Shown here one piece after another: positions 30,874 to 46,438 of a stretch of 64,000 nt of DNA. The notes beneath the pieces are model-generated. The model was not told the DNA's origin. It saw only the letters and a list, made by a program, of their open reading frames with translations, and did no database searches. The position numbers were made by a program, and so were the translations under genes. The stretch covers positions 1,620 to 65,619 of the forward strand of contig NZ_JAUYFA010000058.1 of the NCBI RefSeq assembly GCF_030691135.1, in the 5' to 3' direction. The DNA is from Phreatobacter sp. Its GTDB lineage: Bacteria; Pseudomonadota; Alphaproteobacteria; Rhizobiales; Phreatobacteraceae. Position 1 is the stretch's first letter. Each line of letters starts with the position of its first letter.

Positions 30874-32544
30874 ATGCAGATCAAGACCAAGCTGTTCGCC
30901 ATCGTTGGCGGCTTGACGGTCGCCTCACTGATCGTCGCAGGCGTCGCCGGCTATGGCTTCCAGCGGTATCAGCATGCGGTGACGGAAAACCAGCGCACGG
31001 CGCGGGTCACCCAGCTCGCCGAGCGTGCCAACGGCTTGATCTATGCTGTCGTCATGGAATCGCGCGGCATCTACATGTCGGCCCAGAAGGAAGCCCTCGA
31101 GCGCTTCGCCGCCGGCCAGGATCGCGAACTGGCCAGTTTGCGCACGGTCATCACCGAATGGGCCGGGTTGGCCCGTCCTGAGGACGAGGCCCTGAAAAAC
31201 CGGCTTCTCGAGCAGACGGAAGCCTTCATCAGGCTGCGCAACGAGCTCGCCCAGGCCGGCCGCACCAGCGGCAACCAGGCGGCTCGCGTGATCGGCGACA
31301 ATGACGCTAACCGCCAGACCCGCACGCGGCTCAATGCCGAAATGGCTGCCTTCGCACAGTCGAACGCCCGGCATGTCACGACTCTCTCGCAGGAAGTGGA
31401 AGAAACCCGCCAGACGCTGACCTGGCTTATCGCTCTGACGGTCGGCCTCGCCGTCCTCGCTGGCCTGGCCGCCTTCTGGACAATTCTCACCGGTGTGACC
31501 CGCCCACTCGGTCGCCTGACCAGCGCGGTGGACGCGGTCGCTGACGGACGGACCGATGCCGAAGTCAGCGACACCGACCGCAAGGACGAGATCGGCGGGC
31601 TGGCCCGCTCCGTTCTGGTCTTCCGCGACAATGTCCGCGAGGTCGAGCGCCTCAAGGCGACCGAAGCCGAGCGTGAAGGCGCTAACCGCGCGCAGCGGAC
31701 CCGCGAGATGGCTGAGCTCGCCGATGCATTTTCCGGAACCGTGCAGTCGGTCGTCGCCACGGTGACCCGCTCCGCCGAGGAGATCGTCGGCAATGCCAGC
31801 CGCGTCGGTCTCGTCGCCCGTAACGTCTCCGAACTCGGCCAGACCGTGGCCGCGACCTCGGCCGGCGCGACGCAGAGCGTCGAGAGCGCGGCCAGCTCGG
31901 CCCAGGAACTCGCCTCGTCCATCGGCGAGATTTCCAGCCGGACCGCCCAGGCCCAGCATATCGCCGCTTCTGCGGTTCAGCAGGCGACCCGTACGGGCGA
32001 AATCGTCGCCACCCTCGCCACATCGACCCAGAAGATCGGCGATGTCGTCGCCCTCATCAACGCCATCGCCGCGCAGACCAATCTCCTGGCGCTCAACGCG
32101 ACGATCGAGGCGGCGCGGGCCGGTGAGGCCGGCCGCGGCTTCGCGGTGGTGGCCACCGAAGTCAAGAGCCTCGCCGCTCAGACGTCGAAGGCGACGGAAG
32201 AGATCGCCAGCCAGATCGGTGCTGTCCAGTCGGTCACCGGCGATGCGGTCGCCGCCATCGAGGCGATCAACCGCACCATCGGCGAGATCAACTCGGTGTC
32301 GTTCTCGATCATGGCCGCCGTCGAGGAACAGTCCGCCGTCACCAATGGCATCGCCGGCTCGGTCTCCGAAGCCGCGTCGGGCACCCGCTCGGTCGAGACC
32401 GATATCGGCCGCGTCACCCGCGCCGCCGACGAGACCGGCGCGGCGGCCAATGCCATGAACGAGGCCGCGCGTCACCTCAAGGACGGTTCCGTGCAACTGG
32501 ACCGTGCTGTCGCCGGCTTCCTCGGCCGCATCCGCGCCGCCTGA
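30874..32544 (+). CDS. methyl-accepting chemotaxis protein (transmembrane, periplasmic helical sensor + HAMP)
   Basis: N-terminal TM segment, a sensor region of about 170 aa, a second TM segment, HAMP, and the conserved signalling hairpin [36 protein letters not shown]. Confidence 0.9.
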
Positions 32545-34742: not shown

Positions 34743-36218
34743 TCAGGCGAGCGAGCGCGATGCGATCCGGACCTTGGCGGTCGCCTCGTCGATGTCGCCA
34801 GATGACGTGGCGATCATGCTGATGCTGCTGGAGATGGCCTGGACGCCTTCCGCGGCCACGCGCATGTTCGACGACATCTCGGCTGTCACCGCGCTCTGTT
34901 CCTCGACCGCCGTGGCGATGGCCGTCGATATCTCGCTGATCCGCATGATCGTCGAGGAGATGTCGCCGATGGCGCTGACCGCCCCCTCGGTGGACGCCTG
35001 TACCGATGCGATCTGAGCACCGATCTCCTCGGTTGCCCGCGAGGTCTGGGTGGCGAGGCTCTTGACCTCCGAGGCGACGACCGCGAAGCCCTTTCCGGCC
35101 TCGCCGGCGCGTGCCGCTTCGATCGTGGCGTTGAGGGCAAGAAGGTTGGTCTGGGCGGCGATGCTGTTGATGAGCTGCACCACGTCGCCGATGCGCGCCG
35201 CAGCAGTAGACAAGCCCGATACGATCTCGCCGGTCCTCGCAGCCTGCTCGACGGCACCGCTGGAGATATCCCGAGCACTCGTGACCTGTCGGCTGATCTC
35301 GCCGACGGACGCGGAGAGCTCTTCGGCACCCGCGGCGACCGCCTGGACGTTGCCTGACGTCTGGATCGAGGCTGCGGCGACCTGGGTCGCCTCGTGCTTG
35401 GCGCGGGACACGGATTCACCGATGCCGACAAGATCACCGTCGATCTGCCGCTGCACCTCGGAGCGGCGTTCCTGCTCCTTGACAATGGCCGTGATGTCGG
35501 TGGCGAACTTGACCACCTTGAAGGGCTTTCCATTCATGTCGAAGATCGGATTATAGGTCGCCTGGATCCAGATCTCCCTGCCGCCCTTGCCGATTCGCTT
35601 GTACTGCGCCGCCTGGAACTCGCCGCGCGCCAGGGAGGCCCAGAAAGCTTTGTATTCGTTGGAATGCGCTTCTGCGGGCGCGACGAACAGCGAATGGTGC
35701 CGTCCGCGGATCTCGTCGAGGCCATAGCCGACGGCGCCGAGGAAATTCTCGTTCGCCGTGATGATCTTGCCGTCGAGCTCGAACTCGATGACCGCCTGCG
35801 CCTTGTGGATGGCGGCCAGCTGTCCCTGGATGTCGGCGTGGCGGAGCTTCTGCTCGGTGACGTCGGTCGCATATTTGGCGACCATGTAGACGCGACCGCG
35901 GGAATCCATCACCGGATTGTAGGACGCCTGAATCCAGACCTCCTTGCCGCCCTTGCCGATGCGCTTGTATTCGGCGACCTGGAACTTGCCGGCGCGCAGA
36001 TTGTCCCAGAACTGACGATAGTCCTGGCTGTCGCGTTCGTCGGGAGCAACGAAAATCGAGTGGTGCTGTCCGCGAATTTCCTCGAGCCTGTAGCCGACCG
36101 TCTTCAGGAAGTTCTCGTTGGCCGTGACGATCCGGCCGTTGGGTTCAAATTCGATCACCGCCTGGGAGCGGTCGATGGCCGCAAGCTTGGCGGCAGCGTC
36201 GTTACGAAACAGCATCAT
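34743..36218 (-). CDS. soluble methyl-accepting chemotaxis protein with two PAS domains
   Basis: Has a duplicated module SQAVIEFxxxGxIxTANENFL...[19 protein letters not shown] and no TM segment. The C-terminal signalling domain reads [36 protein letters not shown]. The start is ATG 36218 or 36257. Confidence 0.88.
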
Positions 36219-36374
36219 CACGTTTCCCGGTTGGATTTGCTTTCGTTCTGGCGCCATCCATCACTCGCCGCGATTGAACAAAATCTGAATCGATATATCG
36301 CAAAAACCCACATTATCTGACGTAACGACAACCAAGGCGCGCTCGTCGCGGACAATCAAATTCCTGTGGAGAAA

Positions 36375-36417
36375 TGTGTAATCATTGTGCAGTATCAAAC
36401 TGTGCAGACGCTGTGCG
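36375..36417. promoter_or_regulatory. four TGTGYR direct repeats (candidate CarH/LitR operator)
   Basis: TGTGTA 36375, TGTGCA 36386, TGTGCA 36401 and TGTGCG 36412, spaced 11/15/11 nt. They lie in the AT-richer divergent region between the PAS-MCP and MerR/B12 genes. Confidence 0.4.
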
Positions 36418-36494
36418 GCGAGCGAGACCGTCATGGTAGTCATGCAGAATCGCGTATCGGTTTTTGTCTATCCGTACGGCGACCGGGGCACCCC

Positions 36495-37382
36495 ATGAAC
36501 AGGGCTATCGACATCTCCCGACTGTCGCAGCTGACGGGCGTCAATGTCTCGACCCTGCGCAGTTGGGAAACGCGCCACGCGCTGATCACGCCGTCTCGTT
36601 CGGTCGGCGGTCATCGGCTCTATTCGGCGGAGGATGTCGAGCGGCTCATGCTCGTCAAGGGCCTGATCGACAGTGGGCATCGGCTGTCGGAACTGCGTGG
36701 CCTGACCACCGACGAACTGAAGCAGTTGCAGCCCGCGATCTCCAGCGCTGGTGCCCTCGACCGGGACATGGTCATCAAGCTCGAACGGGCGGTCGACGAC
36801 TGCGACGTCGAAGCCTTCGGCATGCTCCTGCGCTTCGTCTTCGCAGCGTCGCCACCGGCCTTGGCCATCGATGTCTACGGCCATGCGATCCGCTACATCG
36901 GCCAGCGCTGGCAGGAGGGCAGGCTGGGGGTCGGCGGCGAGCACCGGCTTTCGGCCAAGGCGCGCGACGTCGTCACTGCCGCCACCAGCGCATTGGCGCC
37001 CGCAGCGCACCGGCGGCCGATCGCCTTCGCGACGCTCGGCGACGAACGTCATGAACTCGGCCTTCTCGCCGGAGCCTATCTCGCCGCATCGCTCGGCCAT
37101 CGCATGATCTATTTCGGCGCGGGGATGCCGGCGAGAGAACTCGCGGCCGATGTGGCCGGGTCCCAGGCGGCGCTTCTCGTCGTCAGTGCGGTGCACAGCG
37201 TCCCCGGCGGTTCCCTCCAGCACGATCTTGTTTGGCTCGACCGCGGCCTGCCCGAGGAGATTCCCATCTGGATCGGCGCCCATGAGGCGACCCTGGCGCA
37301 TCTCGTGGTGCCCTCAAGGATGGTCGTCATGCGCGACTATGCCGAGTTCCGTCGCCGTCTCAGCATGGCCTTCGAGTCCTGA
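36495..37382 (+). CDS. MerR-family regulator with cobalamin-binding domain (CarH/LitR-type photoreceptor candidate)
   Basis: The N-terminal MerR HTH is LSQLTGVNVSTLRSWETRHALITPSRSVGGHRLY. W139-x9-E149-H150 (RWQEGRLGVGGEHRL) and E184-x-H186-x-x-G189 (DERHELG) match the Wx9EH and ExHxxG AdoCbl-binding motifs of Thermus CarH. Confidence 0.8.
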   Translation: MNRAIDISRLSQLTGVNVSTLRSWETRHALITPSRSVGGHRLYSAEDVERLMLVKGLIDSGHRLSELRGLTTDELKQLQPAISSAGALDRDMVIKLERAVDDCDVEAFGMLLRFVFAASPPALAIDVYGHAIRYIGQRWQEGRLGVGGEHRLSAKARDVVTAATSALAPAAHRRPIAFATLGDERHELGLLAGAYLAASLGHRMIYFGAGMPARELAADVAGSQAALLVVSAVHSVPGGSLQHDLVWLDRGLPEEIPIWIGAHEATLAHLVVPSRMVVMRDYAEFRRRLSMAFES

Positions 37383-37405
37383 CGCCGGTCACACGGCGAC
37401 CGGCG
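37383..37405. terminator. GC hairpin between convergent genes (weak terminator candidate)
   Basis: CGCCGGTC-N7-GACCGGCG is an 8-bp stem immediately after the MerR/B12 gene stop. There is no clear U-tract. Confidence 0.3.
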
Positions 37406-37461
37406 TCACCTCGACCACATGGCGCGCGTCGGCATCGCCCGGCCGGGGTCGCCGTGCCGAC

Positions 37462-38283
37462 CTAGTCGGGCAGATCGTCGCCCTCGGCGCGGCGCAGGTC
37501 GAAGGAAAAGACCCGGGTGGCCGATTCTCCCCGCAGGAAGCCGATGCCGAAGGCTTTCCACCGGACGTTGCGCACCTGACCGGCCGAGAACGTCATGACG
37601 GCCTGTCCGGCGAGCGCCTCGTTCGAGAGCAGCGCCCCGCGGATGATCGCCTCGAGCTTTTCGGACAGGCTCTCGACCAGTCCGAAGACGTTCTGGCGGA
37701 TCACCATCCGCTTGTCCCGCACGTTGAGGCATTTCAGGAAGGCGGGGTTGCAGTTGAGGACCGTGCCGTCGCGGGCGAGGACGACCATGCAACTGGTGGA
37801 TTCGGCGATCAGCGTATCGAGGCTGGTTCGCAGCGCGCCCACCATCGCGGCCTGCCGTCTTTCCTTCTCGCACTTGCGGTAGAGACCCACCACGACCGGG
37901 TGTCCGGACAGCCATTTCAGGACGCAGACCGATTCGATCTCGCTGTCGGCGTGGTCGAGGTCGTCGAAGCGGAAATGATCGGGACCGGCACTGCCGGTGT
38001 CGATGGCCTGCTTCAGATGGGCGCGGAACTTGGCCGCATCCTCGTCGTGGGCCTGCTTGAGCAGGTCGGAGAGCGTCGCCTTGATGACGATGGTCCGATT
38101 GTTCGCATCGACGGTGTCCCAACGGACCCGTTCGGTCTTCAGGTCGATGGACCAGCTGTGAATACCCAGCCGCTTGAGCAGTTCGCTGTGGCGCGGCGCT
38201 TCGGCCGGTTCATCGGGCAACGGCGGCGGCGCGGCGTTCCCAGGACGTCCTAGGATGGCGGTCGGAGACAGAAGCAGGGACAT
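37462..38283 (-). CDS. stand-alone tandem PAS-like protein, no output domain
   Basis: 273 aa. Two PAS-like modules (HSWSIDLKTERVRWDTV... and MVVLARDGTVLNCNPAFLKCLN...) with no kinase, GGDEF or HTH part. Starts at ATG 38283. Confidence 0.6.
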   Translation of the reverse strand: MSLLLSPTAILGRPGNAAPPPLPDEPAEAPRHSELLKRLGIHSWSIDLKTERVRWDTVDANNRTIVIKATLSDLLKQAHDEDAAKFRAHLKQAIDTGSAGPDHFRFDDLDHADSEIESVCVLKWLSGHPVVVGLYRKCEKERRQAAMVGALRTSLDTLIAESTSCMVVLARDGTVLNCNPAFLKCLNVRDKRMVIRQNVFGLVESLSEKLEAIIRGALLSNEALAGQAVMTFSAGQVRNVRWKAFGIGFLRGESATRVFSFDLRRAEGDDLPD

Positions 38284-38404
38284 GGCAAGACCCTCCCTTC
38301 GACGCGATCCTCGCAAAAATCCATAAAACAAACGAGAAAATAGAAGGAAAATGAGGATGTAACGCGATGTCGACCAGCGGGTTAACGGCGACGCCGGCGC
38401 TGGT

Positions 38405-39286
38405 TCAGGCCCCCAGCGGTTTGACGTCCACCGCTACCGCGATGTCATGGTCGCCGGCCGCGATGACCACGCCGCCGTTCGGTGCGACATCGACGAAATC
38501 GCGCCCGATGGCGAGCACGATATGGTCCTCGCCGACGATCAGGCCGTTGGTCGGGTCGAGCCCCCACCATCCCAGTTCAGGTCCGCACCAGAGCGACACC
38601 CAGGCATGCGTCGCATCGGCACCCTCGAGGCGCGGCCTGCCGGCGGGCGGGATGGTGCGCAGGAAGCCCGAGACATAGGCCGCGGGCAGGCCGAGCCCGC
38701 GCAGCCCCGAGATCATGATGTGGGTAAAGTCCTGGCAGACCCCGCGCCGCATGGCGAAGGCCTTGGCGGCCGGCGTCGAGGTGTCCGTCGTCCCCGGCGC
38801 ATATTTGAAATCGCCCTGGATCCGTTTGGCGAGGTCGAAGGCGGCTTCGAGAACCGGGCGGCCCGGCGGAAACGACGCGCTGGCATAGGCGCGGATCATC
38901 GGGTCGCGCGGCACATAGGTCGACGGGAACAGTGCATGGACCGGTGATGAAGGCGACATGTCGGCGCTGGCGAAGGCGGTCTCGCGCACCCGCTCCCAGG
39001 GCGGGTCCATGCCGGGCAGCGGCCGGCTCGTCCCCGCCACCGTGATGTCTGCCCGCATTTCGATCGACAGGGTCCGGTGCGGGCGATCGAAATCGAGGAA
39101 GATGCGCCGGTTGCCGAAGAAGTCCCTGTCGTCACGCCGCATGGCCGGGCTCGGCGTGATGGCGATGTCGCAGCGCGAGACCTGCTGGCCCGGGCGGTCG
39201 ACCGGCATGATGCGCAGCACGTGCTGGGCGAACACCACCGGCCGCGCATAGCTGTAATCGGTGACCTGGCGGACCTGGTAGCGCAT
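38405..39286 (-). CDS. transglutaminase-like cysteine peptidase family protein (Bact_transglu_N + core)
   Basis: The Cys-His-Asp triad is intact: RRGVCQDFTH, DATHAWVSLW, WWGLDPTNG. ATGA overlap with the upstream gene at 39286. Confidence 0.88.
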   Translation of the reverse strand: MRYQVRQVTDYSYARPVVFAQHVLRIMPVDRPGQQVSRCDIAITPSPAMRRDDRDFFGNRRIFLDFDRPHRTLSIEMRADITVAGTSRPLPGMDPPWERVRETAFASADMSPSSPVHALFPSTYVPRDPMIRAYASASFPPGRPVLEAAFDLAKRIQGDFKYAPGTTDTSTPAAKAFAMRRGVCQDFTHIMISGLRGLGLPAAYVSGFLRTIPPAGRPRLEGADATHAWVSLWCGPELGWWGLDPTNGLIVGEDHIVLAIGRDFVDVAPNGGVVIAAGDHDIAVAVDVKPLGA

Positions 39287-41787
39287 CAGAACAGATCGCT
39301 GGTTGCGGGACCGACGGGGTTCGCCCCGTCGCGATGCGTGAAGTAGCGCTCGGAAACCTCGTCGGAAATCGCCATCAGCCGCTGCTCGATGGCGAGGATC
39401 TGGCGGCTGTCGAGCGTATGGGCATCCGCCGTCTGCAGGTCGACCCGCGTCCGGGCGATCAGCTTCTCCGGCACGTTCAGCCGTCCGTCAGCGGCATGGT
39501 CGGGCAGGTGGGCGAGATGGTCGGCGATCCGCTCCACCTGGAAGGCGACGGAGCGCGGATTGTTGGGGTCGAGCACGATGAGGTCGAGGACGGGCGCGCG
39601 CGCGGCGATCATCACGTAGCGGCGGCGATAGGTGATCTGGCTGTCGGCCAGCGCCAGCAGCAGATCGAGCCCCGCCGTCCCTGAGCGCGCATCGCCGAAA
39701 TTGCGTCCGAACCGGCAGATGGCCAGTGCCCTCTCGATCCGCTTGCCGATCTTCAGGAAGCGCCAGCCGATGAGCTGGTTCATGTTCTCCTGGGTGAGGC
39801 CCGAGAAGACGGCGGCCAGCCGCAGCCCGGTCTCGACCCGGTCGAGGGCGCCCGTCTCGAGGCGCTTGTCACCTTCGGCGAGGTGGACCATGTCGTTGAT
39901 GGTCTTCCAGGCGTCGGGTGAGAACCGGTCGCGGATGACGGAGGCGGCATTGTGCGCCGATCGCGACAGCGACAGGAGCCCGCCCGGTGTGCGTCCATGC
40001 AGGACCGCCGCGGCGACGGCCTGCGGCTCGGTGAGCACCGTATCCTTCGGCAGGGCCTCCCATGTGATCAGCAGGTCGACGAGGCGCTTGAGCATGTCGG
40101 GCCCGGTCGTCTCGCCGCTGCCGACCTGGTCGCCAAGCGCCCGCAGCAGGCGCAGCGTCCCCTCCGCCCGCTCCATGTAGCGGGCGAGCCAGAACAGGTT
40201 GTCCGCGGCGCGGCTGGGGAGGGACGAGGTCGAACGCCGGAGCTCGATCTTGTCGGGCGTCGGCAGCAGCGTCGTCTCCGCCACCGGCCCCTCCGCCAGG
40301 ACGCAGACATCGGCCGAGCGGCCGTCGCGCTGCATCGTCACCGCGCGGGCGTCGACCCTGTCGCCGATGCGGCAGAAGCCACCGGGCATCACCTCCCAGC
40401 CGTCACCGACACGGGCCAGGAACAGCCGCAGGATGAACGGGCGGGGCTCCAGATAACCGTCGTTCCAGACCGGCATGGTGGAGAGCTTGACGACCTCCTG
40501 GGCGACGAAGTCGGACCCGCGCAGGCGGATTTCCTCTGCCAGCCGCAAGCGGTGCTCCGGCGACAGGCTGGAGGCCAGGACCGCGCCGTCGTCGAGGAGC
40601 CCGGGAATGGTCTGCGTGAAGGCCGGGGCGATCACGAAGGAATCGAGATCGGCGATGACGGCGCCGCGCTCCAGCGGCTGGCCACACCACCATGTCGCGA
40701 CATGCGGTATGGCGAGGTCGCGGCCGAGGCGCGCGCGGGCGATCGAGGGCAGGAAGGCGAGCAGCGAACGCGCCTCCAGCACCCCTGATCCCAGGGCATT
40801 GGCCAGCGTCACCTTGCCCGATCGGATGGCGTGGACGAGGCCGGCAACGCCGAGCTGCGAGCGCGGATTGAGTTCCAGTGGATCGGCGAAATCGGCGTCG
40901 AGCCGGCGCCATACCATTTCCAGCTTCTTCAGGCCGGAGACCGTGCGGACATAAAGCGTGTCGTCGCGCACCGTGAGATCGGCGCCCTCGGCCAGGAGGA
41001 AGCCGAGATAGCGCGCCAGGAAGGCATGTTCGAAATAGGTCTCGTTGAGCGGCCCTGGCGTCAGCACCGCGACGCGCGAATTCGTCGCCGCCGCATGCGA
41101 CGAGAACTCCGAGCGCAGCGACTGGAAGAAGCCCGCGAGCCGCTCGACCGGCAGGTTTCGGTAGATTTCCGGCAGCGAACGCGCCATGGCGAGCCGGTTC
41201 TGCAGCGCATAACCGGCGCCCGAAGGGGCCTGGGCGCGGTCGCCGAGCACCCACCATCGGCCGTCCGGGCCGCGGCCGACATCGACGGCGTAGTAGAGGA
41301 GGTGCGAACCGCCGCGCGGCGGTGTGCCGACCAGCGGTCGCAGGAAGTCCGGAGATCCGGCGATGGTCGCGCCGGGCACCAGCCCGTCGCGCACGAGATC
41401 GGCCGGGCCGAACAGATCCTTCAGGACGAATTCCAGAAGCTCCGCCCTCTCACGCAGGCCTTTCGAGAGGGCTTTCCACTCGTCGGGAGCGATGACCAGT
41501 GGCAGATGGGCCAGCGGCCAGGCCCTCTCGCCGTTCTTCGGATCGTCGTAGACGCGGTAGAAGACGCCGGAATCACGCATGTAGCGATCGGCGCCGGCGA
41601 ACCGCTTCTCGAGCTCCCGCGGGCCGAGATCGGCGAGGGTGGCGAGCACCGGCTTCCAGTGTTCGCGCGGCTCGCCCTTCGCGTCGAGGATCTCGTCATA
41701 GACGCCGGGCACCGGCTGATAACGCGCCAGCATCGCCAGGATGCGTTCGGCGCGGTGATCGGTCGTGCGTTGGCTCCGGAAGGTCAT
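39286..41787 (-). CDS. circularly permuted type-2 ATP-grasp protein fused to alpha-E domain
   Basis: 833 aa. The N-terminal two thirds match CP_ATPgrasp_2 as I remember it (DSGVFYRVYDDP, WWVLGDRAQAPSGAGYALQNR, ETYFEHAFLARYLG, LANALGSGVLEA). The C-terminal part carries the alpha-E signature AADNLFWLARYMERAEG. Confidence 0.85.
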   Translation of the reverse strand: MTFRSQRTTDHRAERILAMLARYQPVPGVYDEILDAKGEPREHWKPVLATLADLGPRELEKRFAGADRYMRDSGVFYRVYDDPKNGERAWPLAHLPLVIAPDEWKALSKGLRERAELLEFVLKDLFGPADLVRDGLVPGATIAGSPDFLRPLVGTPPRGGSHLLYYAVDVGRGPDGRWWVLGDRAQAPSGAGYALQNRLAMARSLPEIYRNLPVERLAGFFQSLRSEFSSHAAATNSRVAVLTPGPLNETYFEHAFLARYLGFLLAEGADLTVRDDTLYVRTVSGLKKLEMVWRRLDADFADPLELNPRSQLGVAGLVHAIRSGKVTLANALGSGVLEARSLLAFLPSIARARLGRDLAIPHVATWWCGQPLERGAVIADLDSFVIAPAFTQTIPGLLDDGAVLASSLSPEHRLRLAEEIRLRGSDFVAQEVVKLSTMPVWNDGYLEPRPFILRLFLARVGDGWEVMPGGFCRIGDRVDARAVTMQRDGRSADVCVLAEGPVAETTLLPTPDKIELRRSTSSLPSRAADNLFWLARYMERAEGTLRLLRALGDQVGSGETTGPDMLKRLVDLLITWEALPKDTVLTEPQAVAAAVLHGRTPGGLLSLSRSAHNAASVIRDRFSPDAWKTINDMVHLAEGDKRLETGALDRVETGLRLAAVFSGLTQENMNQLIGWRFLKIGKRIERALAICRFGRNFGDARSGTAGLDLLLALADSQITYRRRYVMIAARAPVLDLIVLDPNNPRSVAFQVERIADHLAHLPDHAADGRLNVPEKLIARTRVDLQTADAHTLDSRQILAIEQRLMAISDEVSERYFTHRDGANPVGPATSDLF

Positions 41788-41793
41788 GGTGTG

Positions 41794-44700
41794 TCAATGC
41801 ACCGGCGGACGACGCAGGTCGAGCGTCGCGGGAAACTCTCCCGACCGCTCGCCGCGCGGGGGATCGACGAGGCCTGGCGTATGGCCGTGATCCTGGAACC
41901 GGGCGCGGCGTCGTGCCTCGGCCTCATAGGCATTGACCGGGAACGTGTCGTAGCTGCGCCCGCCGGGATGGGCGACGTGGTAGACGCAGCCGCCCATCGA
42001 GCGGCGGCTCCAGACATCGACGATGTCGAAGGTCAGCGGCGCATGGACCGGAATGGTCGGCTGCAGGCCGGACGGCGGCTGCCAGGCCTTGAAGCGCACG
42101 CCGCCGACGAACTCGCCGCTGCGTCCGGTGGCGGTCAACGGAACCGGGCGGCCGTTGCAGGTCACCGTGTGGCGTTCGGGCTGTAACCCGACCAGCCGCA
42201 CCTGCAGGCGCTCCACGGAGGAATCGACGAAACGCACGGTGCCGCCGATCGCTCCCTCCTCGCCGAGCACATGCCAGGGCTCCAGCGCCTGCCGGATCTC
42301 CATGCGCACGCCGGCATGGTCGACCTGACCGGCGAGCGGGAAGCGGAACTCGAACTGCGCCTCGAACCATGCGGGGTCGAAGGCGTAGCCGGCGCGGCCG
42401 AGATCGCCGAGCACGCCGAGAAAATCCTCCCAGACGAAATGCGGCAGCATGAACCGGTCGTGCAGCGCCGTGCCCCACCGCGCCAGGCCTCCGTCCTGCG
42501 GTTCCTTCCAGAACCAGGCGACGAGGGCGCGGATAAGGAGCTGCTGGGCGAGGCTCATCCGCGGGTCTGGCGGCATTTCAAAGCCACGGAACTCGACGAG
42601 GCCGAGGCGACCCGACGGGCTGTCGGGCGAGAACAGCTTGTCGATGCACAGCTCGGTGCGGTGGGTATTGCCGGTGGAATCCACCAGCAGGTTGCGGAAC
42701 AGGCGGTCGACGAGCCAGGGCGCGGGCGCTGCGCCCTCGCCGGGCTTCGGCACCATCGCCATGGCGATCTCGAGTTCGTACAGCCCGTCGTGGCGGGCCT
42801 CGTCGACGCGCGGCGCCTGGCTCGTCGGGCCGATGAAGAGGCCGGAGAACAGGTAGGAGAGCGACGGATGGCGCTGCCAGTAGAGTACGAGGCTCTTCAG
42901 CAGGTCGGGCCGGCGCAGGAAGGGTGAATCGGCCGGCCGCGCCCCGCCGACGACCACGTGGTTGCCGCCACCGGTGCCGGTGTGACGGCCGTCGACCATG
43001 AATTTTTCGGTGCCGAGACGCGCCAGACGCGCCTCCTCGTAGAGTCCCTGCGTGATCGCGACACATTCGCGCCAGGAGGCGGCGGGGTGGACGTTCACCT
43101 CGATCACGCCGGGATCGGGCGTGACCTTGATGACGTTGAGGCGCGGGTCGGTCGGCGGCGGATAGCCCTCGACATGGACGGTCAGACCCAGTTCCTTGGC
43201 GGTTGCTTCGGTCGCGGCGAGCAGTTCGAGATAGTCCTCCAGCCGCTCGGTCGGCGGCATGAAGACGCAGAGCTTGCCGTCGCGCGGCTCGACCGCCAGC
43301 GCCGTGCGCACCGAATTGTCCTCGGTCAGCACCTGCTCGACCTGGTCGGTCCGCTCGGCCTCCCTTTCGCGCTCGACCGAAACGCGCTGGGTGATCCGCC
43401 CCTCGATGTCGTGGGGATCTGGGAGTTCGGCCGGCACAGTCCAGGGATCGGCGGCGACGACATAGGGATAGGCAGCCGGCGGCACATAGGGCAGGGAGCC
43501 GAGGGGGAGGCGGTAGCCGACCGGACTGTCGCCGGGCACGAGGAAGAGCTTCTCGCGCTTCAGCTTCCACTTCTCCGTCATCCAGTTGGACGTCGCCGGT
43601 GCGGCGTTCCATCGCTGGATCGGCAGAACGAAGCCCGACGGATGGGTCAGGCCACGGGCGAAGACGCGGGCGATCCGGGCACGGGCCTCGGGATCCTCGA
43701 GCTTGGAGTCCAGCGCATCGACATTGACCGGAAGCTCGGCCTCCTTGATCACCCAGTGGGCCGGGTCCTCATAGGCCGGGAGCGCCGCCTCCCCGTCGAG
43801 ACCGAGTTTCTCGGCGATCCCGGCAGCGAGAGCCCCGGCGCCGTCGATCGTCGCAGGCGTCGCCGCCGCCTCGCGGGCGATGAGGGTCTCGTCGCGCCAG
43901 ACCGGCTTGCCGTCGCGGCGCCAGTAGAGGGCGAAGGTCCATCGCGGCAGGCTTTCGCCGGGATACCACTTGCCCTGGCCGTAATGCAGGAAGCCGCCGG
44001 GCGCGAAGGTGTCGCGCAGCCGCCGGATAAGGACGTCGGCGCGCTCCCGCTTCGTCGGACCGACGGCTGCGGTGTTCCACTCCTCGCCCTCGTAATCGTC
44101 GATGGAGATGAAGGTCGGCTCGCCGCCCATGGTCAGACGGACATCTGCAGCCACGAGGTCGGCGTCGACGCGGTCGCCGAGGGCGTCGAGGCGCTGCCAG
44201 GCCTCGTCGGAGAAGGGCGCGGTGACGCGCGGGCGCTCGTCGATGCGGTCGACGCGCATGTCGAAGACGAAAGACACCTCCGCCGGTTCGACGGCCCCGG
44301 ATATCGGGGCTGCGGAACGGTAGTGCGGCGTCGCCGCCAGGGGGATATGTCCCTCGCCGCAGAGAAGGCCGGAGGTCGGATCGAGGCCGACCCAGCCGGC
44401 GCCGGGAATGTAGATCTCGGTCCAGGCGTGGAGGTCGGTGAAGTCCTTCTCCGTGCCGGCCGGCCCGTCGAGCGCCTTGAGGTCTGGCTTCAGCTGGATG
44501 AGGTAGCCCGAGACGAAGCGCGCGGCGAGGCCGAGGCGCCGCGCCAGCTGGACGAGGAGCCAGGCCGAATCGCGGCATGAGCCCGAAGCGTTCTCGAGCG
44601 TTTCGTCCGGCGTCTGGACGCCCGGTTCCATCCTGACGATATAGCGGATGTCCTGTTGCAGCTGCTGGTTGAGGGCGACCAGGAAATCGATGGTCTGCGT

Positions 44701-45114
44701 CGGCCTGCGCGGGATGCCGGCGAGATAGCGCTCGAAATGGGCTTCAGTCGGCTCGATGGCGAGGTACGGCGCCAGTTCCTCGGCGAGAGCCGGCGCATAG
44801 GTGAAGGGGAACGTGTCGGCGTAGCTTTCGATGAAGAAGTCGAAGGGATTGACCACCGCCATGTCGGCGACGAGGTCGACGGTCACCGAGAATTCGGTCG
44901 TCTTCTCGGGGAAGACGAAACGCGCCAGCCAGTTGCCGTGCGGGTCCTGCTGCCAGTTCACGAAATGCTGCTCGGGAACCACCTTGAGCGAGTAGCTGGG
45001 AATGGTGGTGCGGCTGTGCGGCGCGGGTCGCAGGCGGATCACTTGCGGGCCCAGCGTGACCGGACGGTCGTAGAGGTAGCGCGTGACGTGATGCAGCTTT
45101 GCGAGAATGGCCAT
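41794..45114 (-). CDS. large transglutaminase-family protein with DUF2126 C-terminal region
   Basis: 1106 aa. N-terminal Bact_transglu_N plus a core with an intact triad ([26 protein letters not shown]). The remainder ([37 protein letters not shown]) is typical of DUF2126. Confidence 0.85.
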
Positions 45115-45265
45115 GGTGATGATCGGTAAAGGGTGACGACCGGCCGGTCAAAGGCAGAGATGGGGACGCACGCTGCCGGACAAGCAAAGACTGCGCCGCC
45201 GTCCTCCCTCCGGAGGGCTTTCCAGCCCCGGCGAAGCGACCCATAACCACGTCCGCTGGAGAACC

Positions 45266-46438
45266 ATGATGCCGCTGACCATCCCGGACGCCAACGACCA
45301 TGCCGACCTCAGGGACGCCGTCCGCGACCTGTGCGGACGCTATGACGACGCCTACTGGCGCGGCATCGACGAGGAGCGCGGCTATCCTGAGGCCTTCACC
45401 GAGGAGCTGACGCGGGCCGGGTGGCTCGCCGCCCTCATCCCGGCCGAATATGGCGGCTCGGGCCTCGGGCTGACGGAAGCCTCCATCATCATGGAGGAGA
45501 TCAACCGTTCCGGCGGCAATTCCGGTGCCGTCCACGGCCAGATGTACAATATGGGCACGATCCTGCGCGGCGGCTCCGATGAGCAGAAGGCGCGCTACCT
45601 GCCCAAGATCGCGGCGGGCGAACTGCGCCTGCAGAGCATGGCCGTGACCGAGCCGACGACCGGCACGGATACGACGAAGCTGAAGACGACGGCGGTCCGC
45701 AAGGGCGACCGCTACGTCATCAATGGCCAGAAGGTCTGGACCAGCCGGGTCCAGCATTCCGATCTCATGGTGCTGCTCGCCCGCACGACACCGATCGACC
45801 AGGTCCGCAAGAAGTCCGACGGCCTGTCGGTGTTCCTCGTCGACCTGCGCGAGGCGATCGGGCGCGGCATGACGGTCCGCCCCATCCGCAACATGGTCAA
45901 CCACGAGACCAACGAGGTCTTCTTCGACGATCTCGAGATCCCGGCCGAGAACCTCATCGGCGAGGAGGGCAGGGGCTTCAAGACGATCCTCTCCGGCCTC
46001 AACGCGGAGCGCACGCTGATCGCCGCCGAATGTATCGGCGACGGCTACTGGTTCATCGAGCGCGCCCGCAAATACGGCTCCGAGCGGATCGTCTTCGACC
46101 GCCCGATCGCGCAGAACCAGGGCATCCAGTTCCCCATCGCACGGGCCTATGTGAACATCCGCGCCGCCGACCTCATGCGCTTTCAGGCCGCCGCCCTCTG
46201 CGATGCCGGCGCGGAATTCGGCGCCGAGGCGAACATGGCCAAGCTGCTGGCGGCGGATGCCTCCTTCGAGGCGGCCAATGCCTGCATCCAGACCCATGGC
46301 GGGTTCGGCTTCGCGGCCGACTATGACATCGAGCGCAAGTTCCGCGAAACGCGGCTCTACCAGGTGGCGCCGATCTCCACCAACCTGATCCTCGCCTATG
46401 TCGGCGAGCATGTGCTCGGCATGCCACGGTCATACTAG
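45266..46438 (+). CDS. acyl-CoA dehydrogenase family protein
   Basis: 390 aa. AVTEPTTGTDTT, INGQKVWTS and a C-terminal region with the catalytic-Glu context (YDIERKFRETRLYQVAPISTN). SD GGAGAA. Confidence 0.88.
   Translation: MMPLTIPDANDHADLRDAVRDLCGRYDDAYWRGIDEERGYPEAFTEELTRAGWLAALIPAEYGGSGLGLTEASIIMEEINRSGGNSGAVHGQMYNMGTILRGGSDEQKARYLPKIAAGELRLQSMAVTEPTTGTDTTKLKTTAVRKGDRYVINGQKVWTSRVQHSDLMVLLARTTPIDQVRKKSDGLSVFLVDLREAIGRGMTVRPIRNMVNHETNEVFFDDLEIPAENLIGEEGRGFKTILSGLNAERTLIAAECIGDGYWFIERARKYGSERIVFDRPIAQNQGIQFPIARAYVNIRAADLMRFQAAALCDAGAEFGAEANMAKLLAADASFEAANACIQTHGGFGFAADYDIERKFRETRLYQVAPISTNLILAYVGEHVLGMPRSY

Follow-up and report, generated by a model that had tools for sequence, protein, structure and literature searches.

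A three-gene operon was analysed in a 64-kb stretch of Phreatobacter sp. DNA (contig NZ_JAUYFA010000058.1). The whole stretch is referred to below as the window, and all positions are window-based. The genes, named A, B and C, are co-directional on the minus strand. Gene A (41794-45114, minus strand, 1106 aa) encodes a transglutaminase-like (TGase-like) domain N-terminal to a DUF2126 region, and gene B (39286-41787, minus strand, 833 aa) a circularly permuted ATP-grasp (CP-ATP-grasp) domain fused to an Alpha-E domain. Both were delineated by open reading frame (ORF), translation and Pfam match. Gene C (38405-39286, minus strand, 293 aa) encodes a stand-alone TGase-like thiol enzyme.

The A/B spacer (41788-41793, minus strand) is 6 nt long, CACACC, and lies between a TGA stop and an ATG start. 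The start of C and the stop of B overlap by 1 nt. At this junction, cTGATGc, the B stop TGA (39286-39288) and the C start ATG (39284-39286) have one base in common. The ORF listing reproduced exactly the gene coordinates, the tight co-directional packing and the 6-nt gap given in an initial annotation of this DNA. That annotation had also reported a 4-nt ATGA overlap at 39286, which has to be corrected to the 1-nt TGATG overlap. Translational coupling is still compatible with the shorter overlap and, as judged from the sequence, plausible for all three genes. The G+C content at third codon positions was 0.87 for each gene, in line with real genes in a window of 67% GC. No transmembrane or signal-like segments were predicted in A, B or C, and the three proteins are predicted to be cytoplasmic.

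Two predicted ligases and two thiol enzymes

All five Pfam families expected from the initial annotation matched strongly. In A, Bact_transglu_N (2.5e-26, residues 6-83) and Transglut_core (1.7e-17, residues 134-246) were accompanied by DUF2126 (PF09899), which matched at E=0 and 1339.6 bits over profile positions 1-826 of 826. B matched CP_ATPgrasp_2 (5.4e-133) and CP_ATPgrasp_1 (9.2e-86) (PF14403 / PF04174) together with Alpha-E (PF04168, 3.8e-65), which bears out the proposed fusion of ATP-grasp and Alpha-E in one protein. C matched Bact_transglu_N (4e-22) and Transglut_core (6.6e-15). As profile matches, the five assignments are full-length, highly significant and well above chance. No NCBIfam model (June 2026) matched A, B or C.

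The TGase module of A (44290-45114, minus strand, residues 1-275) consists of Bact_transglu_N and Transglut_core. Its translation contains the motifs GSCRDS, DLHAWTEIY and GLDPTSG, with the triad Cys180-His229-Asp245. The module is paralogous to the entire C protein (26% identity, E = 2e-20), where GVCQDF, ATHAWV and GLDPTN were found and the triad is Cys184/His227/Asp244, aligned with that of A. Alignment to the solved TgpA transglutaminase domain (6G49) placed both triads on its Cys/His/Asp motifs; alignment with 3ISR did so in part. When compared with solved structures, C matched 3ISR at 8.9e-9 and 6G49 at 3e-7. The triad was present in 50/50 orthologues of A, defined by at least 50% identity to the window protein over the DUF2126 region, and in 50/50 orthologues of C. 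Because the triads align to 6G49 and are retained throughout these orthologues, both can be placed at catalytic positions and are, by this comparison, under selection. The Cys-His-Asp triads that had been read from the motifs of the two TGase-fold proteins thus fall where they were expected.

The DUF2126 region of A (41797-44289, minus strand, residues 276-1106) was modelled with AlphaFold2 using 117 diverse homologues. The model had a predicted local distance difference test score (pLDDT) of 86.5 and a predicted template modelling score (pTM) of 0.88. By Foldseek, it has a glutamine synthetase (GS)/GCS2 fold, to which large insertions and an all-beta domain at the C-terminus are added. The best PDB matches were the YbdK/GCS2 entries 1TT4 and 1R8G (E ~5e-4, probability 1.00). 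They were followed by GmaS (gamma-glutamylmethylamide synthetase), glutamine synthetases and then Dop at E = 0.06; 1-naphthylamine GS was also among the matches, and all 39 leading PDB matches were GS-fold ligases. At the sequence level, a PDB-sequence profile search with the A family matched the TGase part only, and Pfam scans of DUF2126 sub-regions, with E up to 10, gave no cross-family match.

Pfam describes DUF2126 as a 'putative amidoligase'. The Rv2566 family was described in 2008 as joining a TGase-like domain to a carboxylate-amine ligase from the superfamily of glutamine synthetase (Iyer, Burroughs, Aravind 2008, PMC2588565), and the order Bact_transglu_N, Transglut_core, DUF2126 in A agrees with that description. 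By the structural model, DUF2126 is a GS/GCS2-fold carboxylate-amine ligase, predicted to be ATP-dependent. With DUF2126 itself counted as a ligase, the operon holds two thiol enzymes and two predicted ligases whose folds are unrelated. The initial annotation had counted one ATP-dependent ligase and two thiol enzymes; the thiol enzymes stand, and the single ligase gives way to two.

Candidate catalytic motifs of A are GGEPTF (residues 330-335), DPGVIEVN (667-674), GTGGGNH (713-719), GNTHRTE (815-821) and a further motif at 838-849. They were examined by contrasting the window-like DUF2126 group (type 1) with divergent paralogues resembling the protein P0197 (type 2). For ten residues (E332, E672, H711, H719, H818, E841, K382, K704, K826 and H948), conservation was at least 98% in type 1, compared with 0-8% in type 2. 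The window protein retains every one of these Glu, His and Lys residues. In the type-2 paralogues structural residues were kept, and the TGase Cys was retained by 10 of 66. This selectively lost set is probably the ligase active site of A, since it is invariant in orthologues and missing from paralogues that also lost the TGase Cys. The motifs that carry these residues resemble those by which glutamine synthetase binds metal and phosphate, a likeness at the level of motifs only. We infer that the type-2 copies are pseudoenzyme partners.

Tandem TGase-DUF2126 pairs were seen in some gammaproteobacterial loci, with pairs at L081:5753-12255, L086:5657-12288 and L082:5648-12375. Within the L081 pair, the one that was examined, the upstream copy retains GSCRDS and the second copy, P0197, is without the TGase Cys.

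The CP_ATPgrasp_2 / CP_ATPgrasp_1 domain of B (40366-41502, minus strand, residues 96-474) was delimited by Pfam and by alignment to 3N6X, a solved CP-ATP-grasp that matched residues 46-497 at 7.6e-69. This structural-genomics entry was deposited as 'putative glutathionylspermidine synthase'. The motif AADNLFWLARYMERAEG was also found in the B translation. The Alpha-E domain (39340-40221, minus strand, residues 523-816) was supported by Pfam, by its model and by conservation, and its ER motifs R536/Y537/E539/R540 and E685/R686 were invariant among 63 orthologues. The Alpha-E model had a pLDDT of 85.9 and 13 helices. Foldseek against the PDB returned no significant neighbour (best E = 0.4), so that the modelled fold gives no functional lead and Alpha-E stands as a structural orphan.

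Conservation and surroundings of the operon

More than 8000 homologues of A were found. The closest were from Phreatobacter, with 88-95% identity, and among the matches listed the nearest was a Phreatobacter metagenome-assembled genome (MAG) at 95%. The DUF2126 family comprised 3,142 clusters at 50% identity (E <= 1e-30) and was present in at least 600 species genomes. Across alphaproteobacterial orders, A is 60-76% identical.

Synteny was assessed in the best 80 alphaproteobacterial loci (L001-L080), 72 of which had enough downstream sequence to be judged. A-B-C was collinear on one strand in 67 of the 72 informative loci. In five loci (L008, L061, L062, L064 and L069), A, with 64-70% identity, was found without B or C in the available downstream sequence. 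The triad also occurred outside the Alphaproteobacteria, among Beta- and Gammaproteobacteria, namely in Burkholderia, Ramlibacter, a Chromatiaceae MAG and a metagenome contig. The neighbourhood census that had been suggested for the three genes therefore showed them to be syntenic, both in these 67 loci and in other proteobacterial classes, and A-B-C is inherited as a unit. Median identity to the window was highest for the DUF2126 region (66%), followed by the grasp domain (49%), C (45%) and Alpha-E (36%). A evolves far more slowly than the rest of the operon.

The triads outside the Alphaproteobacteria were often joined to a split set of grasp and Alpha-E genes, with or without a TGase gene, and once had an Anbu-like gene nearby. 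Six genes are lined up in Burkholderia multivorans (L083:5499-16248): a split CP-ATP-grasp, Alpha-E and TGase, then a TGase-DUF2126 gene, a grasp-Alpha-E fusion and a second TGase. This array physically joins the split (Anbu-type) and the fused systems. In some loci the TGase-DUF2126 gene directly followed the split grasp and Alpha-E pair. Because it there occupies the usual slot of the small TGase, the gene order suggests that each ligase is matched to a thiol domain.

Clustering of the flanking genes (ORFs of at least 60 aa, 80 loci) revealed no further consistently linked family; the runner-up was the generic ABC ATPases, in 20 loci. Inspection of both intergenic flanks of the operon for small ORFs yielded mechanical ORFs only, with no credible or conserved candidate. 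No Proteasome-family match was obtained among the 10 flanking ORFs of the window, and tblastn with the Anbu-like protein of L081 found no Anbu in the window or in L001-L080.

Two kinds of peptidase genes were seen close to related triads. A Zn_ribbon_DZR_6 + Peptidase_Mx metallopeptidase gene, not present in the window, adjoins the triad in 11 loci of several genera (L003:15437-16585, L014, L016, L018, L019, L037, L041, L057, L060, L072 and L077). It is divergent from A in ten of them, lying upstream of A in L014 and the other loci named after it, and lies after C in one. On the metagenome contig, a 248-aa Anbu-like proteasome homologue (N-terminus MTYCVAIT...; L081:19980-20726, minus strand) was located ~4 kb downstream of the DUF2126 triad.

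In the window, C is followed at a distance of 121 nt by a 273-aa ORF with a good Shine-Dalgarno sequence (37462-38283, minus strand). Its sole Pfam match was PAS, below the curated threshold; NCBIfam gave none, and its L001 homologue lies ~4.5 kb from C. A MerR-family regulator gene (36366-37382, plus strand) stands between the operon and the methyl-accepting chemotaxis protein (MCP) genes. These are a PAS-PAS-MCPsignal chemoreceptor of the aerotaxis type (34743-36257, minus strand) and a paralogue of its MCP-signalling domain (~31846-32415, plus strand; 56% identity). The flanking acyl-CoA dehydrogenase, MerR, PAS and MCP genes were rejected as parts of the operon, as their adjacency is not conserved. 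It had been stated that no regulator or precursor-peptide gene adjoins the operon. This holds for conserved genes, as judged by the small-ORF and neighbour scans; the unconserved MerR and weak PAS genes do lie just downstream. Among the PADLOC models of anti-phage defence proteins, 0 families were matched by A, B and C.

Predicted function and alternative explanations

A literature search on 'DUF2126' returned nothing, and a search by COG and Pfam identifiers returned nothing functional. A preprint on uS11 isoaspartate and an S. meliloti GWAS paper had no bearing on the operon. The association of ATP-grasp, Alpha-E and transglutaminase genes was predicted in 2009 by the Aravind group, as summarised in three later papers. 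The attribution to this group in the initial annotation agrees with these summaries and with the 2008 paper on Rv2566 (PMC2588565). For the Rv2566 family, the 2008 authors favoured the making of glutathione or of a peptide related to it over protein conjugation, on the ground that no Pup-like ORF is linked to it (PMC2588565). Papers on Anbu describe the role of its operon as unconfirmed, and ATP hydrolysis by the Yersinia ATP-grasp is the only activity they report. For the Anbu-operon proteins of Y. bercovieri, no interactions or peptidase activity were detected.

In M. tuberculosis, a quantitative trait locus (QTL) table on host interaction includes an rv2566 transposon mutant, and Rv2566 appears in a within-host diversity list. 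Its TGase partner Rv2569c was reported in 2024 to be a protease in vitro and was termed a 'serine protease' (PMC11081392). In the same study it co-fractionated with the cell wall, and its deletion lowered epithelial translocation. The activity was blocked by 4-(2-aminoethyl)benzenesulfonyl fluoride (AEBSF) and phenylmethylsulfonyl fluoride (PMSF), but not by E-64 or N-ethylmaleimide (NEM), and the authors acknowledge that this clashes with the predicted cysteine-protease domain (PMC11081392). No active-site mutant of Rv2569c was found in that paper, where 'mutant' refers to deletion strains and the word 'catalytic' is absent. The report does not establish the native function of Rv2569c, nor can it account for an operon that is cytoplasmic, coupled to ATP-dependent ligases and carried by free-living bacteria. 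The initial annotation had held that no substrate, product or phenotype had been shown. Our search likewise found no substrate or product. The part concerning phenotypes no longer holds in the strict sense, given the Rv2569c deletion phenotype with its protease report (PMC11081392) and the rv2566 mutant of the QTL table. None of the outcomes that the annotation had named as refuting it was clearly seen.

A candidate sigma-54 -24/-12 element, CGGCGCAGTCTTTGCT, was located upstream of A (45183-45198, minus strand) and ends 68 nt before the A ATG. It is weak and tentative: it agrees with the consensus at 9 of 12 positions, both the GG and the GC core being intact, and it has the same position in L001. 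Sigma-54-like sites scoring at least 9 were present in 18 of 79 related loci (23%), compared with ~8% of random windows, which points to a weak enrichment, modest and not family-wide. A scan of 37000-46000 for sigma-70 promoters and intrinsic terminators gave nothing above shuffled expectation, and an Rfam scan gave one chance-level snoRNA match only. In P. putida, PP_2688 (CP-ATP-grasp) and PP_2685 (Anbu), both of a split-type operon, were induced by log2 4.0-4.4 on nitrate versus ammonium. In marine metagenomes, the abundance of the split-triad domains follows that of urea-metabolism domains.

Our preferred reading, to which we give a probability of about 0.4, is tentative. A-B-C may be a cytoplasmic, possibly nitrogen-linked, glutathione-like system that makes and breaks gamma-glutamyl-type amides, with a small peptide or amine conjugate rather than a protein as substrate. 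The DUF2126 ligase would first phosphorylate a carboxylate, most likely the gamma-carboxylate of glutamate, and then join it to an amine, as has precedent in its superfamily. The ATP-grasp of B would make a second amide bond, with Alpha-E as its probable substrate-binding or regulatory partner. The TGase-like domains would then attack the gamma-glutamyl-type amide through a thioester, and hydrolysis or transfer would follow. Such a cycle would unite the logic of glutathione biosynthesis, where an ATP-grasp ligase acts after a GCS-type one, and that of glutathionylspermidine synthetase/amidase, in which ligase and thiol amidase are fused. The 'ligate-and-trim' idea of the initial annotation is reasonable. 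A small gamma-glutamyl conjugate is favoured because there is no tag gene, because small-molecule ligases are the best structural matches, and because the 2008 paper took the same view (PMC2588565).

Several points weigh against this reading. The likeness of DUF2126 to GS-fold ligases is remote, with a TM-score of 0.35-0.39 on the target and a root-mean-square deviation of 9-10 A; a low TM-score is to be expected where 830 residues include large insertions and an all-beta domain at the C-terminus. The catalytic residues of A were assigned by paralogue contrast and motif likeness, not by superposition. Papain-fold TGase-like enzymes usually act on proteins or peptides. The addition of Anbu or of the Zn-ribbon metallopeptidase in subsets of loci hints at peptide or protein substrates as well. 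A is large and slow-evolving (66% vs 36-49% for B and C), which also fits a macromolecular substrate or a large assembly. As for the nitrogen link, the regulation data come from the split Anbu-type operon, not from the DUF2126 type, and the sigma-54-like site lacks family-wide conservation. In the literature searched, neither a substrate or product nor an activity was found for any protein of the A or B type. When Rv2567 and Rv2411c were expressed, no GABA (gamma-aminobutyric acid)-trehalose was made, according to a preprint, a result that excludes that single product only.

The main rival is protein or peptide tagging, a serious contender that we nevertheless place on the unlikely side. The ligases would add amino-acid or short peptide tags to the side chains or ends of target proteins in the manner of RimK, TTL or PafA, the TGase domains would remove or trim them, and Alpha-E would recruit the targets. 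Tagging is how the Aravind group read the triad of ATP-grasp, Alpha-E and TGase-like genes, as far as the later papers summarise it. It would suit the peptidases linked in subsets of loci (Anbu in L081, Peptidase_Mx in 11 loci), the very large and highly conserved A, and the tandem pseudoenzyme paralogues, which suggest hetero-oligomeric machines. Structures of the Dop/PafA type are indeed among the fold matches of DUF2126, but the list is headed by small-molecule gamma-glutamyl ligases rather than by Dop. Neither in the window nor in the 80 related loci was a Pup-like ORF or any other conserved small ORF found. The failure to detect interactions or peptidase activity for the Y. bercovieri proteins also speaks against tagging, as does the case that the 2008 authors made against protein conjugation for the Rv2566 family (PMC2588565).

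A more far-reaching proposal, in our view rather unlikely as a whole, is that the operon makes an undescribed gamma-glutamyl-type conjugate. This would be either a low-molecular-weight, glutathione-like compound or a short non-ribosomal protein tag without a Pup-like carrier. Its level would be set by the built-in thiol amidases and tied to nitrogen status, and the degenerate copies of the tandem pairs would serve a large ligase assembly as pseudoenzyme subunits with a regulatory role.

Alternatively, the operon could be a nitrogen-salvage relay. Under nitrogen limitation the TGase domains would deamidate glutamine or other amides of peptides or metabolites, releasing ammonia or capturing the acyl group, and the ligases would re-fix the freed amines, comparable to gamma-glutamylation by PuuA/PuuD or GmaS. 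A relay of this kind would fit the finding that the related operon of P. putida is induced when the nitrogen source is poor, but such expression data are limited to the split Anbu-type operon. Likewise, the candidate sigma-54 site upstream of A would fit, but sites of this kind are weak and occur in a minority of loci. Co-variation with urea-metabolism domains and the fold matches to GmaS, 1-naphthylamine GS and glutamine synthetases are on its side. The flanking-gene clustering of the 80 loci, however, showed no consistently linked transporter or oxidase genes of catabolic gamma-glutamylation, and we regard a salvage relay as distinctly improbable.

It is highly improbable that C lies exposed at the cell surface and cleaves external proteins with broad specificity, and that the operon is a device for host or environment interaction, as the cell-wall location of Rv2569c and the poorer crossing of epithelial layers by its deletion mutant might suggest (PMC11081392): the inhibitor profile (AEBSF/PMSF yes, E-64/NEM no) conflicts with a Cys-His-Asp papain fold, no active-site point mutant was found in that report, C has no signal peptide or transmembrane segment and is coupled to the gene of a predicted cytoplasmic ATP-dependent ligase, and free-living bacteria of soil and water commonly carry the operon.

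The system was already predicted in 2008-2009 and is very common, and the window copy is an ordinary member, no more tractable than the copies in thousands of other genomes. The DUF2126 family is one of the larger conserved 'known unknowns' in bacterial metabolism. If it were solved, a novel small peptide or thiol-type compound could emerge, or else a novel way of modifying proteins, with relevance to M. tuberculosis through Rv2566-Rv2569c. The present analysis yields a residue list for mutagenesis, the count of two ligases, a synteny census and a critical reading of the only biochemical claim, that for Rv2569c.

Comparison with known systems

The M. tuberculosis locus Rv2566/Rv2567/Rv2569c resembles A-B-C in that Rv2567 is a candidate ATP-binding enzyme, Rv2569c is a TGase-like protein of the YebA/COG1305 type, and the locus tags are consecutive. 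This likeness was drawn by description, not by alignment, and the orthology of Rv2569c and C is putative. Unlike C, Rv2569c lies, by its 'c' suffix, on the strand opposite to Rv2566 and Rv2567, and so is not coupled as C is.

In the Anbu operon, CP-ATP-grasp, Alpha-E and Bact_transglu_N/Transglut_core follow in the same order, and peptide synthesis or tagging is predicted for it too. Its split triad stands directly beside the DUF2126 triad in Burkholderia and in some gammaproteobacterial loci. The window differs in having the grasp-Alpha-E fusion and the extra DUF2126 ligase, and in having no Anbu gene.

TgpA of P. aeruginosa and the structural-genomics protein 3ISR have the Transglut_core fold and Cys/His/Asp motifs that aligned with those of A and C, and 3ISR, at 293 aa, has the length of C. 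TgpA is a membrane-anchored periplasmic protein, whereas A and C are predicted to be soluble proteins of the cytoplasm.

PafA and Dop belong to the same carboxylate-amine ligase superfamily, and Dop was among the fold matches of DUF2126. Their deamidate-then-ligate logic could be mirrored, by analogy, in the fusion of TGase and ligase in A. Against this, the operon has no Pup-like ORF, the window has no linked proteasome genes, and Dop matched at E = 0.06 compared with 5e-4 for small-molecule ligases.

The glutathione and glutathionylspermidine enzymes are related to the operon through YbdK/GCS2, the top structural match of DUF2126, and through 3N6X with its deposition as a putative glutathionylspermidine synthase. 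GCS2 is less than half as large as DUF2126, and the thiol domains are TGase-like, not CHAP. A, B and C had no NCBIfam match, and their Pfam ligase matches were DUF2126 and CP_ATPgrasp only, so that the likeness to GshA, GshB and the glutathionylspermidine enzyme lies in fold and architecture alone. Glutathione is made by a GCS-type ligase and an ATP-grasp glutathione synthetase, the same pairing of folds as in A and B. In the E. coli glutathionylspermidine synthetase/amidase, a papain-like thiol amidase is fused to an opposing ATP-dependent amide ligase.

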